DNA from: an uncultured Gemmatimonadaceae bacterium | GTDB lineage: Bacteria > Gemmatimonadota > Gemmatimonadetes > Gemmatimonadales > Gemmatimonadaceae | Direction of reading: 5' to 3' | DNA length: 64,000 bases | Assembly: GCA_963829055.1 (NCBI GenBank) | Contig: CAWHHI010000018.1 | Span: forward strand, 38,786-102,785 | Shown here: piece by piece, positions 55,351 to 63,999 of the stretch | Layout: the number at the start of each line of letters is the position of its first letter | Numbering within the stretch: the first letter of the stretch is position 1 | The notes under the pieces: generated by a model | Told to the model about the DNA's origin: nothing | The model's input: the letters and a program-made list of their open reading frames with translations, nothing else | Databases searched by the model: none | Program-made: the position numbers and the translations under genes

Positions 55351-57855
55351 ATGACGAGTAGCGCCGCCGCTCCATTCCTGCCTCATTTTCCGGAATCGGT
55401 TCCCGTCGGGGAGCCGGCGCGCAGGCGCTGGGTTCGATGGACCCTGATCTTCAGCGCCTGGACAGTCTACGGGTTGTCGCAAGGCCTTCTAATGAAGGTC
55501 ACCGACCCCAGCATGACCTGGCTGTGGGCACTGGAGATCTGCACCGGCGTCGCGTGGTTCTGGGCGCTCCTCACGCCGGGAATCGTCTGGATCCAGCGCC
55601 GCATCGAGGAAGCACACTTCGGCAAGCCGGGCTCGCTGCTGGCGCATGCGATCATCGCCCCGGCGGTCGCGTTGCTCGTCACGATGGTTCGGCAGCGGCT
55701 CACGGCGGCGATGTCGCCACTCGACATCGGCCCGCTGATCCCGAGCTACGTCTACTGGCTGGACGTGCATATCCTCACGTACGCGATGGTGGTCGCGGCG
55801 GCGTGGGCGTTAGGCCTGCATCGGCAGTACCGTGACCGAACGGTTCGCACGCACATGCTCGAGGTGCAGCTCGCGCGCGCGCAGCTCCAGTTTCTTGGGC
55901 TTCAGCTTCAGCCGCACTTCCTGTTCAACTGTCTGAACGCGATCTCGGAGCTCGCGCACGAGGCGCCAGTCGCCGCCGAGCGAATGCTGCGGCAGCTCCA
56001 TACGTTGCTTCGTCTGTCGCTGGAGCGCGCCGGGCAGGACGAGGTGACGCTCGACGAGGAGCTCGCGAGCCTCGACCCGTACTTCGACATCCAACGCGCG
56101 CGCTTCAGCGAGTGGCTCACGGTGCACCTCGAGGTCGAGCCTGGAGCTCGGCTGGCGCTCGTCCCGCACCTGATCCTGCAGCCGCTGGTGGAGAACGCCA
56201 TCCGACACGGACTCGCGGTCCGGTCCGCGCCAGGCAGCGTCGGCGTCCGCGCGTGGGTGACGGATTCGCGACTGCATCTCGAGGTGCTCGACAACGGCGT
56301 CGGTCTCTCGCCGACACGAACGTCATTCCGCCCGGGCATCGGGCTCAAGAACGCGAAGAATCGGCTGACGCAATTGTACGGCGACGACCACCGCTTCGAG
56401 CTGCGGTCGGCTGAGGATGGTGGCACCGTCGTGGCGTTCGAGATTCCGTATCGATCGCGCGCGCTGCTCGCGGACCAGCCGCCGCCGGACTGGAGCGCCA
56501 CCGGCGAGTGGTCGATGATGCCGCCGCAGCGCTTGTGGTCCACGCCTGCGGCCGGAACGCCCGCCGCCGGACAGTCGACGGCGGCGGCCGTCGCGCAATC
56601 ACGCTGGAACGGTCTCGAGGCCAACGAGGTCCTCGGCAACGATCCGCCATCGCTCGCGCGCACGGCGTCGGTGACGGAGCGCGCGAACGGCGCGACCGAG
56701 ACGTCGATGGGCGCCACGTTAGGCGACCCGCACGCCGTGAAGCCGGGACGCGAGTCGCCGCGAATCTCGGCCCGTGGCTGGCTCGCCGATCGCCGGCGTC
56801 TGGGCCGGCAGCGCGGTGTTGTGGTCGCTCCAGGTGTATTACTTCTCCGTCACGCGGGGCACGCCCGAGGCGGGGGAACAGATTCAGTACTTCCTCACGC
56901 ATCTCGTGTCGGCGGCGGCGTGGGCGCTGTTCACACCGCTGGTGCTCTTCCTCGCGCGTCGCCTGCGCATCGGCCGGCGTAATTGGCCGAGCCGTATCGC
57001 GGTGCACGCTGTGCTTGCTGTCGTCGTGGCGACTGCGCATGTCGCGATCGTGCGGGCGACGGGTCTCATGGGCGATTTCGGTCTCTTCTCGTCGCTCAGC
57101 TTCAATCAGATCTCGGGCAACGTCTTCATCTACTTCGGCGTTGCTGGCCTGGTCGCACGGGCGCGACTTCTACGCCTGGTATCGCGAGCGCGACGTCGCG
57201 GCGGTGCGACTCGAGGCCGCGATCGCGCGGTCGCGCTACCAGACGCTCTGCGTGCAGCTGCGGCCGCAGTTCCTGCTCGGTACCATCGAGCTGCTCGCGC
57301 GGCTCGTGCACGAGGACGTGAATCGTACGGAGCGGCTCATCGCCCGCTGGCGGACGTGCTTCGCCTCACGCTCGACGCGGCGAGTGAGCGCGAGACGTCG
57401 CTCCGCCGCGAGCTGGAGCTCGTGCGCGCCTACGTCGACGTGCACGACCTCGGCGTTCGGCCGGGGACGGCGCTCACGCTTCACGTCGCGCCGGAAACGT
57501 TGTCGGTGCGCTTGCCGAACCGGCTCCTCCGCACGTTGATCGACGACCTGCTCATGGGCAGCGGTGTGGCCTCGTTCCACCCGAGTCGATGTCGGTGACG
57601 GTGGAATCGGAGCGGCTGGTCGGTGGGACCACGCGGGTCCGCGTACATGCAGCAACCCCCGAGGGCGAGGCCGCGGAGACGGGCCGTCCGGGCGGTTGGG
57701 TGGAAGCGGTCGAGAAGGCGACGCTCGCCGAGCGCGACCGGAAGGTGTCGTTGTACTTCCCTGATTCGATGACCGCGATCGTCCTGCTGGCCGATCGTGA
57801 CGCGGAAGCATCCCGGGACTCGGCGCCCGCGCTGCTCTCCGCTCAACCTGCGTAG
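55351..57855 (+). CDS. LytS-type sensor histidine kinase with a tandem second TM plus degenerate kinase module (frameshifted)
   Basis: QLQPHFLFNCLNAI, LQPLVENAIRHG, DNGVG, GIGLKN. Second module QLRPQFLLGTIELL, SLRRELELVRAY. Confidence 0.8.
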
Positions 57856-57869
57856 CCCGAGGTACCGAC

Positions 57870-58706
57870 ATGTCGATTCGTGTGTTAGTGACGGACGACG
57901 AACCCATCGCACGACGACGCATCCGTCGTTTCCTGCGTGCGGAGAGCAACGTCGACGTCATCGGCGAAGCGTCGAACGGGCGCGAGGCCATCGAGGCGAT
58001 CCGCCAGCACAACCCCGACCTCGTCTTCCTCGACGTGCAGATGCCGGACGTCGATGGGTTCGGCGTCGTCCAGGCGTTAGGCCCCGACCAGATGCCAGCC
58101 GTGATCTTCGTGACGGCCTACGACGAGTACGCGCTCAAGGCGTTCGAGGTCAACGCGCTCGACTACCTGCTCAAGCCGTTCGACGCCGAGCGTTTCAAGA
58201 GCGCGTTCCAGCGCGCGCGCGAGCACATCGATCGCGTGACGACCGCGCAAGCCGGTCGCCGGCTCAAGACGTTGCTCGAGCAGGTTCTGCAGGACGACAA
58301 GGTCGATGTCAATACGGCCGCACAGGCGTTGTTAGGCGCCTCGGGCACGCACGCCGCTCCGAAGAACGGCTACCTCGATCGCCTGATGGTGAAGAGCGAC
58401 GGCCGCGTGTTTTTCGTGAAGGTCGCCGACGTCGATTGGTTCGAGGCGTCGGGGAACTATGTTCGCGTGCACGTCGGGAAGACGTCGCATCTGATTCGCG
58501 AGACGATGAACGGGATCGAGTCGTCGCTCAACCCGCAGATGTTCGCCCGCATCCATCGCGCTGTGACGGTGAACCTGGATCGGATCAAGGAACTGCAGCC
58601 GTGGTTCGCCGGCGACTACGTCGTCATCCTTCGCGACGGCCGACAGCTGAAGCTCAGTCGCACGTATCGCGAGCAGTTGCAGGCGCGCATGCACCGCATT
58701 CCCTGA
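57870..58706 (+). CDS. LytTR-family response regulator
   Basis: DDEPIAR, FLDVQMP, FVTAYDEYA, DYLLKP. LytTR FARIHR..VNLDRI, LSRTY. Confidence 0.95.
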   Translation: MSIRVLVTDDEPIARRRIRRFLRAESNVDVIGEASNGREAIEAIRQHNPDLVFLDVQMPDVDGFGVVQALGPDQMPAVIFVTAYDEYALKAFEVNALDYLLKPFDAERFKSAFQRAREHIDRVTTAQAGRRLKTLLEQVLQDDKVDVNTAAQALLGASGTHAAPKNGYLDRLMVKSDGRVFFVKVADVDWFEASGNYVRVHVGKTSHLIRETMNGIESSLNPQMFARIHRAVTVNLDRIKELQPWFAGDYVVILRDGRQLKLSRTYREQLQARMHRIP

Positions 58707-58798: not shown

Positions 58799-59249
58799 TC
58801 AGTCGTGGCGCACCATGGTCACGAGGAGCGCGCCGTTGTTGTGCTTCGTCCCGTAGCGGGTGACTGATTCGACGGCGCTGATGCGATCGACCGACGCCAC
58901 TTCATGGGCGGGAAGGAGCTGTAGCACGTCTATCGATCCCGCGAAGCTGCCGTCGATGTAGACCGCGAGCGGGTCTGCGCGCCCTGTGAGCTCGAGCGAT
59001 GGATTGGGCCGCGGGCGGAGATAGATCGGTGCGCGGAGGCGGAGTACGTCGTAGAGCGTCTCGCCGCCGAAGTAGTCGACGCGGCTCGTTCCGGTGAGCA
59101 GCTGGCCGCGGGACGACGCCGTCCCGCCCGAACTGACAACGGTCGTGCGTGGTGGGGACGGCGGCGCCGGTGGATGACAGGCGCGCCGTGGAAGGAACGC
59201 TGGCGCACGCGAGTGCGCAAAGGAACACGGCCGAATAGGCGGATCGCAT
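58799..59249 (-). CDS. Small exported TonB-plug-like lipoprotein (frameshifted)
   Basis: ALAC lipobox-like sequence, TLYDVLRLRAPIYL, PLAVYIDG, RYGTKHNNGALLV. Confidence 0.6.
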
Positions 59250-59975
59250 ACGGATCTCCTGTCGCGAGTAGGCGGCGTGCGATTCGGCACGTCGCGCTTG
59301 CTAGATAGGAGTTCGGTCCGTCACCGACCAAACGGTCTGGGACGAGCCGCGCCACGTTGCAGACCAACCGCGCGTTCCTGACGACCGGATGGATGGCACG
59401 ACGGTCGAGTTCCGATGAGGGTCTAAGTGACACGCATAGAGCGGTTTACATGTCGCTCACAATTTCACCACCAGATGCGAACCGTTCGTCCGGCGGCGGT
59501 GTCGTACTTGGATTGGGCTGAGGGGCCCTGGCGCGTCGGGCGTCTCGATTCCGCTCTCTGCGAAGCACACTGGATCTCCGCCGCCACCGACGTGCGTGAC
59601 TCAGACCACATCGGACGAGCCCAGTCGCGGACCGTTCATCCCCGCTGAGTCGCCTGTCGACCCCGACGCGAGCCGAATTGGGACGCGCCTTCATAGCTTT
59701 GGCTCTGGCGCCAGGTACGCGGTGGTGCCAACCTGCACGCCAGATGCGAAGGCGCGACACCGCCTGTGGCGCTCGGCCTTTGATCCACTGGTCCGTATGC
59801 TTTCACTGCGCCAATGTGCCGTCTACCGCGGTTTGGCGACGGCTCCATTTGTGCGAACGGTCACACGAGCAACCGCGCCTTCGGGCGACGGACGACTGGG
59901 TTTGCCGCGGTACAGCGGTACAATGTTCACGCGAAGCGACGTGAGTAGGAGACCCGACCGCCGGGGAGGCGAGGA

Positions 59976-61569
59976 ATGAAGCGTTCGAGGATCGCGCTGA
60001 TGGGCACGGCCATTGTCGTGCTTCCGGTGGCGGTGGGCGGTTTCATGATGCAGCGACGGGAAGCGACTGATGCGGCCCGTCTCTTCGCCCAGGTGTTCGC
60101 TCGGGTCGCGGCCGACGCCGTCGACTCGGTTCCACCTGACGCGATGTACGAGAAGGCGGCGCGCGGTCTCGTGCGCAGCCTGAACGACCCGTACGCCGAC
60201 CTGTATTCGCCGCAGGAGCTCGCGAGCTTCTCTCGCAACTCGCTCGGCAACTCGTACGGCGGCGTCGGCATGCTGATCGAGGATCAGCAGGGCACGTTCA
60301 CGGTGGCCAAGGTCTACCCGCACACGCCGGCCGAAGCGGGCGGCGTGCAACTCGGCGATCACATCGTGTCCGTGAACGGTGTGGCGACGAAAGGGCTGAA
60401 GCTGGAAGGCGTCTCCGGCCGCCTAACGGGAACACCGGGCTCGAACGTCACCGTGACGTTCGCGCGTGGCGGTGTCACGCAGCCCATCGAGTCGCAGTTC
60501 ACGCGCGCGGTCGTTCACATTCCGGCGGTGCCGTTCGCGGTGATGCTCGACGACAGGATCGGCTACATCCCGGTCCAGAAGTTCAACGAGTCGTCCGGCA
60601 GCGAGGTCGAGTCGGCGCTTCGCCAGCTGGCAGGGCAGGGCGCGCGCTCGTTCGTGCTCGACCTCCGCGGCAACGGCGGTGGCGACTTCGATGAGTCGCT
60701 CCGCATGGCGAACCTGTTCCTCAAGCGTGGGCAGGACATCGTCACGGTGCGCACGCGGACAGCCACGCCGGTCGTGAGCCGCGCCGACGGAGCAGCCGAT
60801 CGTGCCTGACGCGCCGCTCGTCTTGCTGACGGACGGCTACACGGCGTCGGCGTCGGAGATCGTCGCCGGATCTCTGCAGGACCACGATCGCGGTGTCATC
60901 ATCGGCACGACGTCGTTCGGCAAGGGACTGGTGCAGACGCTGTTCACGCTCGACGGTGGGTGGGCGCTCAAGATGACGACCGGCAAGTGGTACACGCCGA
61001 GCGGCCGCTCAATCCAGCGCGAACGGAAGCTTCTCGACGATGGTCGTCTCGTGGAGGTCGTTCCGGATTCGCTCGAGACGGACTCGGTCCGCAAAGCGCG
61101 CCCGGCCTACAAGTCCGACGTTGGCCGCGTCGTGTACGGCGGCGGTGGCATCACGCCGGATGTGATCATCCCGTCGGATACCATCACCGACGCCGAGCAG
61201 ACGTTCCTCAAGGCGTTGGCGCCGAAGTCGCAGGAGAGCTACCTGGTGCTCTATCAGACGGCGCTCGAGCAGAAGGCGGCGGTGAAGTCGTCGTTCACCG
61301 TCACGCAGGCGTGGCGTGACTCCGTGTATGCGCGCCTGACGAGAGCGGGCGTCCAGATCTCTCGCCCGGAGTTCAACGCCGCGCAACAGCTGATCGACCG
61401 CGACCTCGAGCGCCGCGTGGCCTCGATGGCGTTCGGTGACTCGGCGGCGTTCCGGCGCACGATCTCGTACGACACGCAGCTGCGTCGCGCGATCGACCTG
61501 CTGCATGGTGCCGGCAACCAGCGCGAGCTGCTCGCCGCCGTTGCGCAGGCGCGTCCGCGTAGCGACTGA
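59976..61569 (+). CDS. S41 family C-terminal processing protease (frameshift near 60795)
   Basis: LNDPY, PDZ YGGVGM, LDLRGNGGG, TASASEIVAGSLQDHDR, SFGKGLVQ, WYTPSGRSIQ. Confidence 0.93.
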
Positions 61570-61597: not shown

Positions 61598-61638
61598 ACG
61601 CCGCCGTCTCGCCTAACAAGCGGACGGCGGCGTTTTTC
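61598..61638 (+). terminator. Rho-independent terminator
   Basis: ACGCCGCCGTC...GACGGCGGCGT followed by a T-run, after the S41 gene. Confidence 0.75.
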
Positions 61639-61877
61639 GCGGGGAACGTGGCGGGCCTCGCGGCAGGTATCGACCGGTCGGTGCTCGGCTCGAACCCAAG
61701 CACGTGACCGCAGGGCGAATCCGGCTCTCGGCGCTCACACGCGGCTCGCATAAGCGAGCGCGCGCTTCGTCACACGAAACGGGCGACGCCGCGTCGCGGC
61801 CTCCTACGTTGCCAACCACGGCACTAGCTAGGGCTCTCTTCGGCGAGGACCGTCCGTGATTCAGGTGGCCTCAAACC

Positions 61878-62792
61878 ATGAGCGCGACGATCGATTGTCG
61901 CCAGCTCACCAGCACGACGACCTGCGAGGGGTCGCCGCGGCATTCGAAACCGCGCAGGCCCAGCGGCTTCGCACCGGCGAACAGATCCGCGCGCTCGTTC
62001 AGACGCGCGGTGATACACGACCGCCGCATGCGCGCGGGACGGGCGACATCGAGGCGCTGCTCGCCCGCATTCGCGCCGGGGCGGCACCGGCGCCGCTCGC
62101 GTCGGTCGGTGACGTCTATCGCCGACAGTGGAACGAGGAACGTGAGCTCCTGCGCGAGCTCTCGGAGCGCATCGCTCGACACCCGGCGTGGCACTGGCTG
62201 GAACGGGTGCGCGGCATCGGCCCGTCGCTCGCGGCTCGTCTCCTCGCGCGTCTCGAGATCGATCGCGCGCCGACGCCGTCGTCGTTCTGGTCCTACTGCG
62301 GACTCGCGACCGTCGTGGCGCGAGGTGTACCGGTGTAGCGAGTGCGGCTACGAGTTGTCGTTGGCCGCGGGGCGCAGCGTTAGGTCCGCGCATCGCGTGC
62401 CGCGTTCGGGACAATCGTGCGCGGGCGCGCTGGCGCCGATCGGCGAGGGACCGCGTCGTGTGGCGCAACCGCGTCCGACGCGTGGCGAGAGCGCCCCGTA
62501 CGACCGTGAGGCGAAGAAGCTCTGCTACCTCATCGGCATCTCGTTCGTGCGGCAGGGCGACACGTACAAGCGCTACTATCAGGATCAGCGCGACCGACTG
62601 GATGCGGCGAAGCCCGACTGGATTCCGAGACGCCGGCACCTGACGGCGCTGCGGATGACGGAGAAGCTGTTCCTCGCGCATCTCTGGCTCGTGTGGCGCG
62701 AGCGGCTCGGGCTCCCGATCACGGCGCCGTACGCGGACGTTCGTGATGACGGTTCGGCGTCGCCGAGGCCGTGGGCTATGGTGGAAGCCTAA
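61878..62792 (+). CDS. IS110/Nop-domain protein lacking RuvC (TasA-like) with CCHC Zn-ribbon insert; frameshifts near 61895 and 62320
   Basis: Coiled-coil, then HPAWHWLERVRGIGPSLAARLLARLEIDRAPTPSSFWSYCGL, then CSEC..H..C, YDREAKK, HLTALRMTEKLFLAHLWLVWRERLGLPITAPY. Confidence 0.7.
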   Translation: MSATIDCRQLTSTTTCEGSPRHSKPRRPSGFAPANRSARSFRRAVIHDRRMRAGRATSRRCSPAFAPGRHRRRSRRSVTSIADSGTRNVSSCASSRSASLDTRRGTGWNGCAASARRSRLVSSRVSRSIARRRRRRSGPTADSRPSWREVYRCSECGYELSLAAGRSVRSAHRVPRSGQSCAGALAPIGEGPRRVAQPRPTRGESAPYDREAKKLCYLIGISFVRQGDTYKRYYQDQRDRLDAAKPDWIPRRRHLTALRMTEKLFLAHLWLVWRERLGLPITAPYADVRDDGSASPRPWAMVEA

Positions 62793-62934
62793 CGGTCAGC
62801 CGTTCGCACACGGCCGCGTGATCGGCGGCACAACGTGCCACTGCAGTTTCTGGTATGGTGTGCCGAGCCTAGAGGATGAATGCACGCCCGCCCCGGGCCG
62901 TCTCCTTGCTCGTCCGCTTTCGCCGCACTTGCCG

Positions 62935-63370
62935 ATGTCGCCTCAGCTGCAGGATCGTCCTTCCGCGAACGATCATGGTCCCTCCCGGTCCGTGTTGCTC
63001 GTCGACGACGAGGCGTTGGTCCGCACGGCGATGCATCGTTTTCTCGCGCGCCGTGGGTGGACCGTGAGTGAGGCTGTGGACGGCGAGCTGCGCACGGACG
63101 CTGCTCGACCCGATTGCCGGCATCGAGTTCGACCTCGTGATATGCGATCTGCAGATGCCTCGACTCTCGGGCCGTGAGTTCTACGGCTGGCTCGCCCGCA
63201 CCCGCCCGGACCTGGCGAGCCGGCTCGTATTCTCGAGCGGTGACCTGCTGTCCCCCGAGTTCGCAGCGTTCCTGACCGAGGCGGGGCGCCCCGTGCTGCC
63301 CAAGCCATTCGACCTGAGCGAGCTGGCGAGGATCGTCGAAGAGGTCTACGCCGACGCTCACGCCGCCTAG
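62935..63370 (+). CDS. Single-domain response regulator (frameshift near 63090)
   Basis: VLLVDDEALVR, FDLVICDLQMP, VFSSG, LPKPF. Confidence 0.88.
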
Positions 63371-63925: not shown

Positions 63926-63999
63926 CGGGACGTAGCGCAGCCCGGTAGCGCACCTGAATGGGGTTCAGGGGGTCGCGGGTTCAAATCCCGCCGTCCCGA
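63926..63999 (+). tRNA. tRNA-Pro(GGG)
   Basis: Acceptor CGGGACG/CGTCCCG, D-arm GCGC, anticodon arm CCTGA-ATGGGGT-TCAGG, T-arm GCGGG-TTCAAAT-CCCGC. CCA is not encoded. Confidence 0.97.

Follow-up and report, generated by a model that had tools for sequence, protein, structure and literature searches.

A TasA-type Nop-domain gene, probably domesticated from phage, on Gemmatimonadota chromosomes, and a predicted single guide RNA in its sister subclade that matches susC-like genes

The window, as we call the whole stretch of 64,000 nucleotides analysed, carries near its right end a single tasA-type gene and, around it, the set of genes and signals listed in Table 1. The preliminary description had placed this gene among housekeeping-type genes, but the neighbours turned out to be a signalling and transport set, including the LytS/LytTR pair, the S41 peptidase and a receiver protein. 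The S41 peptidase was found upstream of tas in 22 of the 25 loci of the window's subclade with enough sequence, the orthologues being syntenic; in 7 of 25 loci of the same subclade, susC directly follows tas. Over all 47 chromosomal tas loci, a response regulator or kinase was identified in 37 (against 14.5% of random windows of the window's genome), and a SusC or plug-like gene in 30 (against 6%). The LytS/LytTR pair, lying 3-6 kb upstream, is a candidate controller of the tas promoter, a control that we infer. The direct repeats in front of tas are conserved in 28 upstream regions, with a spacing that we take to be the LytTR-type layout, and related single sites, both weak matches, stand before the LytS kinase gene (55235) and before the small minus-strand gene (59348).

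Table 1. Genes and sequence features around the tas gene of the window
Feature	Position	Strand	Remarks
LytS-type histidine kinase region and LytTR response regulator	55351..58706	+	Pfam His_kinase, Response_reg, LytTR
Small conserved protein	58799..59290	-	adjoins tas in relatives too; resembles stand-alone plug-like proteins
S41/CtpA-type peptidase	59976..61569	+	conserved upstream neighbour; extra base 60786 likely assembly error
Direct repeats in three imperfect copies, spaced by about 21 bp (61722, 61742, 61766)	61720..61775	+	predicted LytTR-type regulator site
-10-like CTACGTT (61804) and ribosome-binding GAGGA (61845)	61804..61849	+	conserved; predicted function
tasA-type gene	61856..62792	+	311 aa; Nop domain and coiled coil, no nuclease
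C-x2-C-x16-H-x8-C insert, wedge position, predicted zinc ribbon	62334..62420	+	marks the whole clade including phage members
Single-domain response regulator	62935..63370	+	extra base 63088 likely assembly error
tRNA-Pro(GGG)	63926..63999	+	within 1.5 kb downstream in 10/25 subclade loci

Some further observations were made on the surroundings of tas. The small minus-strand protein gave no Pfam match. Small stand-alone proteins lie beside tas in the window and at L010, L012-L014, L019, L042 and L054, that of L019 matching TonB Plug, and they are possibly periplasmic signal partners of the kinases. The tRNA-Pro gene is a possible old integration site; in genome G001 two frames past tRNA-Pro (L004:134-813), presumably excisionase-like and primase-like, fit an integration hotspot next to tas. 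No Rfam family besides tRNA was detected at four loci. The word GCCTAACG or its complement is present in 5002 copies in the window's genome (G000), against 193 for a permuted word, and behaves as a REP-like repeat often placed at gene ends; repeats of this type stand in the window at 61598-61633 and 62787-62794.

The tas gene starts at the GTG codon at 61856 (M-I-Q-V-A), preceded by GAGGA at 61845-61849; both the start and this element are common to the same-genus orthologues, and the ATG at 61878 was rejected as the start because these orthologues begin at the GTG. The N-terminal peptide M-I-Q-V/L-A is conserved at the protein level, with synonymous changes in some rows. The preliminary description had arrived at a protein of about 300 residues after repair of two frameshifts; only one frameshift is present, caused by one extra base near 62320. 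This extra base is missing from two metagenome short-read contigs, each 97% identical to the window, and both of these contigs also lack the extra bases at 60786 in the peptidase gene and 63088 in the receiver gene; a Logan contig from an independent run lacks all three. Because the extra base is absent from independent contigs, and because the same sources lack the extra bases of both neighbours, the break is very likely an assembly error and the tas gene itself likely intact. In each half of the broken gene 153 residues, out of 155 and 156 respectively, are those of an intact orthologue (L195). Between 58700 and 63800 many single-base insertions were noted relative to the near-identical contigs (for instance 60786, 62320 and 63088), so that the assembly is indel-prone and split genes in the window should be doubted.

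The gene is present in one copy in the genome, and intact orthologues, 304-325 aa in length, were identified in five of the six further genomes of the genus, in one of them as a partial gene at a contig end, and in 7 of 36 genomes of the family. One genome, G002, carries two near-identical copies (L002 and L009) on separate contigs, for which duplication or strain mixture is possible (5% contamination). The median dN/dS for 378 pairs of the window's subclade is 0.165, and the gene is under purifying selection. All the sequence marks pointed out before, namely the coiled-coil helices, GIG, SxxWxYxGL and the C-terminal A.R...KLFLAHLW..WR..LGLP...PY, are present. RNA runs gave only short contigs over the gene, which we do not take as evidence of expression.

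In a sequence search of solved structures with an intact orthologue, only TasR (5e-24) and TasH (2e-10) matched. A structure model was then compared (pLDDT 91), and the ten best Foldseek hits were all Tas proteins; the model superposes on TasR with Z 19.8 (rmsd 2.2 over 196 residues) and on TasH with Z 19.6, against 13.6-13.7 for the IS110 recombinases IS621 and ISCro4 and 7-8 for Nop5. The model begins with a coiled coil at residue 11, and among its elements there is no N-terminal DEDD/RuvC, HNH or other nuclease domain, and no N-terminal fibrillarin-binding domain of the box C/D Nop5 type; likewise no longer homologue was found among 8000 candidates, which is weak evidence. The gene product is a nuclease-free Nop-domain protein of TasA type. 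The lack of a DEDD RuvC domain, already remarked in the preliminary description, agrees with this, but the origin from a stripped IS110 protein proposed there gives way to direct descent from phage TasA, since Tas is closer than IS110 by both sequence and fold. That the gene is a decaying remnant of a truncated IS110 transposase is very improbable and already largely refuted: a Pfam Transposase_20 match (26 bits over 40 residues) and the broken frame of this assembly speak for it, against the closer match to TasR and TasH, a single copy with intact, syntenic orthologues at dN/dS 0.17, and the absence of the break from independent contigs. Multicopy full-length relatives, as expected of a recent IS110 truncation, were not what we found, and no terminal inverted repeats of note were detected, in keeping with the earlier remark that IS ends are not evident.

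The C-x2-C...H...C insert was found exactly where it had been described. Its four ligands are invariant in 47 of 47 aligned homologues and kept in 29/29 and 44/44 rows of later alignments; its dN/dS is 0.22, and its matches to zinc-ribbon profiles are weak and sub-threshold only. Among viral loci the insert is carried by 4 of 33, the other 29 being canonical TasA without it. In a quick tree built from the 117 proteins left after dereplication of 155, with poor resolution of the deep branches, the rows carrying the insert fall into a single clade (SH-aLRT 100); within it lie phage-type rows (98), the subclade of the window (99) and its sister subclade (99). Three of the phage rows of this clade (L059, L060 and L062) carry TIGR arrays. 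Since array-bearing phage TasA has the CCHC insert, the insert predates domestication, and it is therefore no sign of a new role; as judged from the sequences, the chromosomal genes descend from array-associated Tas.

The arrays of the phage members of the CCHC clade are of the dual-repeat kind, box C reading CCN and box D reading AG; with the strict boxes of the preprint (D = TG/CG), arrays were detected at only 5 canonical phage loci and the AG-box clade was missed. Many canonical phage TasA loci (L063-L091) also carry long dual-repeat arrays with box D AG and not TG. In two or three phage members (L060:4605-5891, L061, L062:4617-5894) the CCHC TasA is fused to an N-terminal alpha-CTD-like domain; RNA_pol_A_CTD scores above the Pfam cut-off, and arrays lie at several places in these viral contigs. 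Such a fused protein is possibly an RNA-guided recruiter or decoy of activators, and the fusions hint at further regulatory modes. The His of the C-terminal Tyr/His processing dyad, present in 18 of 18 canonical rows, is absent from both the window's subclade and the sister subclade.

A scan of genomes turned up 49 loci, almost all under Gemmatimonadota titles, and the gene was present in just 5 of 400 sampled genomes of the phylum, indicating a patchy distribution. The idea of a chromosomal branch is supported, and the CCHC chromosomal genes of Gemmatimonadota are not mentioned in the TIGR literature searched, the words 'zinc' and 'Gemmatimonad' being absent from three main texts; these proteins could well be among the 20,096 loci of the TIGR datasets. 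A preprint names CPR bacteria as the only known non-viral hosts with TIGR arrays (10.64898/2026.09.09.750476). Taken together, the Tas fold and family, the absence of a nuclease, the CCHC insert, the single copy, the synteny and the purifying selection form a description of which we are highly confident, and with equal confidence we regard the gene as a domesticated TasA, likely an intact, single-copy chromosomal descendant of phage TIGR TasA. A TasA-like, nuclease-free, non-mobile and domesticated protein, as first proposed, is supported.

For the sister subclade a predicted guide RNA was identified. One stem-loop tigRNA unit lies directly after the tas stop codon in 55 of 55 loci (54 of the sister clade plus L215, near-identical loci included, four too-short loci having been dropped), and reads in the order long stem, box C, spacer A, AG, four-base loop, box C, spacer B, AGCG, stem. 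The sister locus holds this single dual-spacer C/D unit and not an array. Across 39 sequences, 95% of the stem cells are paired, and 7 of the 13 pairs show compensatory changes. Spacer B is ATCAACCC in 45 of 55 loci; spacer A starts with ATGTC in 54 of 55 and is variable at its 3' end. A one-base insertion in spacer A in 10 loci indicates that the guide unit is not coding, and because the last spacer position is the repeat purine, the spacers are read as 8 bases. When 61 relatives were scanned with a covariance model of the unit, it was detected in one only, G017, where it lies beside tas; G017 is the sole tas-solo genome of the 61.

Further single tigRNA-like units stand after the stop codon in L016, L207, L208, L209 and L211, upstream in L019 and L210, and downstream in L042; the spacers of these solo units differ from the main sister guide and are shared among L208, L209 and L211. 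Three other solo guides yielded no convincing target, attempts to read guides 2 and 3 as further TonB motifs and the L042 guide included, and a resemblance of the sister guide to its own promoter is not kept across loci. About 100 nt upstream of tas in L026-L057 there is a portable promoter, marked by a palindrome of the TTTAC-N5-GTAAAC type and by TAGCGT as a -10-like box; this promoter is kept while the upstream genes vary and recurs as a second copy in L228 at +1858. The palindrome is likely the site of the linked OmpR-type regulator; as the mark of a wider regulon it was rejected, not being enriched in G017 (20 against 37 for the control).

In order to predict the target, we took spacer A followed by reverse-complemented spacer B, according to the cleavage rule given in PMC12045711, where gaps of 1-2 bp are tolerated. 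A free-gap search gave 19 matches, spread over 12 of the 25 genomes with a guide, and none for the reversed pattern, a control that ignores codon structure; 17 of the 19 share one spacing with a 1-bp gap, a length chosen after seeing the matches. These 17 comprise 11 sites in SusC-like genes at the I-N-P-x-D-I plug motif, 3 at a susC promoter and 3 elsewhere; Pfam Plug and CarboxypepD_reg were confirmed for two target genes. The three promoter sites stand just upstream of the TTGACA (-35) of a susC-like gene and are non-coding, so that codons cannot explain them. With a relaxed motif, 98 sites were identified in 25 of 25 genomes, and of 30 inspected 25 are plug motifs and 2 the promoter site. 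The 1-bp gap falls on the wobble base of Pro, the variable bases of spacer A fall on residue x, and the variation of the guide tracks the codon wobble of I-N-P-x-D-I. Targeting is also favoured by the rarity of such a copy number: only about 3 in 100,000 gapped 13-mers of the same G+C attain 9 copies in the window's genome, a figure to be multiplied by some tens for the choices made.

The match has its weak sides. Spacer A positions 7-8 mismatch the target, leaving 13-14 bp of pairing; under a stricter pattern 13 of the 25 genomes are without an exact 13-base site, and the canonical 18-bp target has no exact site in 5 genomes. The motif is also found without the guide: the guide-free genome G000 has 9 motif sites, 8 of them in plugs, and 29 guide-free genomes hold 65 sites (in 23 of the 29), 34 of them perfect. 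Perfect sites amount to 67% with a guide and 52% in guide-free genomes, a difference that is not significant, and since the motif is equally common without a guide, its abundance alone shows no targeting. The short pairing, the commonness of the plug motif, the genomes without an exact site and the late choice of gap length speak for a reading in which the guide is real but the SusC plug match a coincidence, the true target lying elsewhere (phage or unassembled sites). We consider this unlikely, in view of the covariation of the guide with codon wobble, the non-coding site at the susC promoter and the recoding of the linked susC described below. As for phage targets, an exact-pattern scan of viral contigs gave 26 matches, uninspected and about the number estimated by chance; a search for phage self-targets gave 2 weak matches, no more than shuffled spacers, so that the 1-bp gap is uncalibrated there.

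In the sister cassette, tas and the guide are followed by a small gene that may be absent, by an OmpR-type regulator and a kinase encoded on the opposite strand, and then by susC and a gene that we take to be susD-like. The linked susC is systematically anti-matched to its own guide: it mismatches, by the use of rare codons, in 24 of 24 loci reaching the motif, 22 of them by at least 2 bases and by several routes, and the mismatch switches with the guide allele, the Asn codon being AAT in 19 of 22 loci with guide AAC and AAC in 2 of 2 with guide AAT. In an unbiased codon-degenerate search, tallied by hand, 0 of 10 linked against 53 of 79 unlinked sites proved perfect (Fisher 5e-5), while gene-wide codon use is the same in both (expected 0.34); a non-ATC Ile codon occurs at 8 of 10 linked, 5 of 79 unlinked and 1 of 65 guide-free sites (29 genomes). 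Since the linked susC genes are orthologous to one another, and since all three promoter sites belong to close relatives, the p-values overstate the significance. By analogy with TldR and flagellin, this pattern of mismatches suggests a receptor-swap switch, and the sister clade probably encodes a susC receptor-swap repressor. Repression is preferred to activation because most sites are intragenic and because TasA represses transcription in E. coli, as reported for MbTasA (10.64898/2026.09.09.750476).

In contrast to the sister subclade, no guide was found for the window's subclade. No tigRNA or TIGR array was detected near tas in about 40 of its loci by a detector that does find arrays at phage loci. 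In the search for a guide in trans, a genome-wide profile of the window's genome gave at best 19 bits and no stems, a motif search of G001, G002, G004, G005 and G015 gave 30 matches against 20 for the control and no tigRNA, and the covariance model gave none in six genomes of the genus; the assemblies searched are 70-92% complete, and diverged motifs would be missed. Several candidates were rejected: a 3' hairpin (62715-62825) with z -2.8 here has a median of -0.3 over 27 relatives; the 5' leader and flanks yielded no accepted source; the conserved start region is conserved at the protein level, with synonymous changes in some rows; a match of guide to own promoter in the window's clade gave 62 chance-like matches; multi-target units (249 of 8940) gave nothing convincing; and three weak covariance-model matches are without intact boxes. 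With no array or tigRNA at the locus, it is classed as an orphan TasA-family gene, not a complete TIGR system. The RNA-guided regulator of the preliminary description, which had also called for a search for TIGR arrays in trans, is thus strongly suggested for the sister subclade, but for the window's own subclade no guide was detected in cis or trans.

The Nop core is kept in the window's subclade. All 28 of its full-length rows retain the positions (R247, W255, R266, K270 and R281) that correspond, by spacing only, to the box-C contacts of PlTasA, which are reported together with the long-stem contact in 10.64898/2026.08.11.744272. The predicted long-stem contact position is Arg in 44 of 44 sister rows and Ala in the window's subclade, which also shows the changes R43 to Q/E, K212 to S/N and K267 to M at positions mostly kept by guide-bearing relatives. 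At L208, L209 and L211 a related promoter site and a solo guide are apparently both present, suggesting that this was the ancestral chromosomal state and that the cis guide was lost in the window's lineage.

Two other roles have to be weighed for the window's protein. A guide-less decoy might bind tigRNA boxes or dimerise with phage TasA, bind DNA poorly and so neutralise phage TIGR repressors; an RNA-binding core kept where no guide is found, the loss of the basic residues R43, K212 and K267, and the existence of phages with the same CCHC clade and box motifs are all in line with it. The stable place of the gene in a signalling cluster with a regulator-type promoter, not in a defence island, speaks against the decoy, and the roles of the changed residues are inferred, not obtained by mapping on a structure; we regard it as improbable. 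A regulator that has left RNA guidance, and whose zinc ribbon or M-I-Q-V/L-A peptide would contact a host RNA leader, DNA or a partner protein, is equally improbable: it would account for the missing guide, the strong purifying selection that extends to the insert and the conservation of the N-terminal peptide despite synonymous changes, but the insert is older than domestication, being found in array-bearing phage TasA, and the box-C contact positions are fully kept.

The reading that we prefer for the window's protein, to which we give an even chance, is a dimeric RNA-guided repressor, predicted to be induced by a two-component system and to tune SusC-like transporter genes; since none was found at the locus, the proposed guide would lie elsewhere. 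The nearby two-component system is predicted to switch on the window's tas. In the sister subclade, spacer A together with reverse-complemented spacer B, separated by the 1-bp gap, would probably pair with the DNA that encodes the plug motif of SusC, and the pairing would block transcription of resident susC paralogues, from which the recoded susC-susD of the cassette would escape. The weakest step is that the window's orphan works likewise, with a guide in trans or too diverged to detect, a step that could fall either way. We lean slightly towards a course of events in which a phage TIGR-TasA was domesticated into a signal-controlled receptor-swap switch with one fixed guide, and the window's lineage later shed the cis guide.

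If this is true, the sites in susC-like genes would be the first natural targets put forward for a TIGR system within the literature searched, where no paper was found joining TIGR-Tas with Gemmatimonadota or TonB targets. It would also represent regulation of a paralogue family through coding DNA, a whole TonB-dependent transporter family being silenced at once. The clade offers a fixed guide, a named target family and a built-in negative control in the linked recoded susC, and displays a path leading from a phage array by way of a single guide to none, all of this testable in E. coli. The switch would be a third independent route, after TldR and dCas12f-sigmaE, to RNA-guided regulators of cell-surface genes, and such genes encode nutrient gates as well as common phage receptors.

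Compared with known systems, the window's protein is closest to TIGR-TasA (Faure 2025, PMC12045711; 10.64898/2026.09.09.750476), as far as described there, sharing the nuclease-free Nop domain with coiled coil and, in phage and sister-clade members, the C/D boxes and two spacers. It differs in that the window's clade is chromosomal in free-living Gemmatimonadota, carries the CCHC wedge insert and has no guide detected, while the sister clade has one fixed guide in place of a variable array and a candidate natural target family. The IS110 bridge recombinases (IS621, ISCro4) have a homologous C-terminal RNA-binding fold, but tas lacks the DEDD domain and a bridge RNA, is not multicopy and stays at a fixed locus. 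The Nop5/Nop56/58 box C/D proteins share a distant Nop fold (Z about 7-8), but tas lacks the N-terminal fibrillarin-recruiting domain, and the two spacers of the sister guide match opposite DNA strands and not one RNA. The dCas12f-sigmaE system (PMC13472631) is likewise a domesticated RNA-guided regulator, with susCD operons and two-component genes as predicted targets, but by the account given there it activates through a sigma factor, employs an unrelated protein and belongs to Bacteroidetes. The nearest likeness in action, predicted for the sister clade, is to TldR with the prophage flagellin FliCP, a nuclease-dead domesticated RNA-guided repressor that silences a resident surface-protein gene while the linked isoform takes over (PMC13418256). 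As described in that source, TldR is derived from TnpB and uses a single-spacer guide at the promoter of one gene, whereas the sister system would employ a Nop-domain dimer and dual spacers against a predicted coding motif in many paralogues, with escape of the linked receptor by codon choice.
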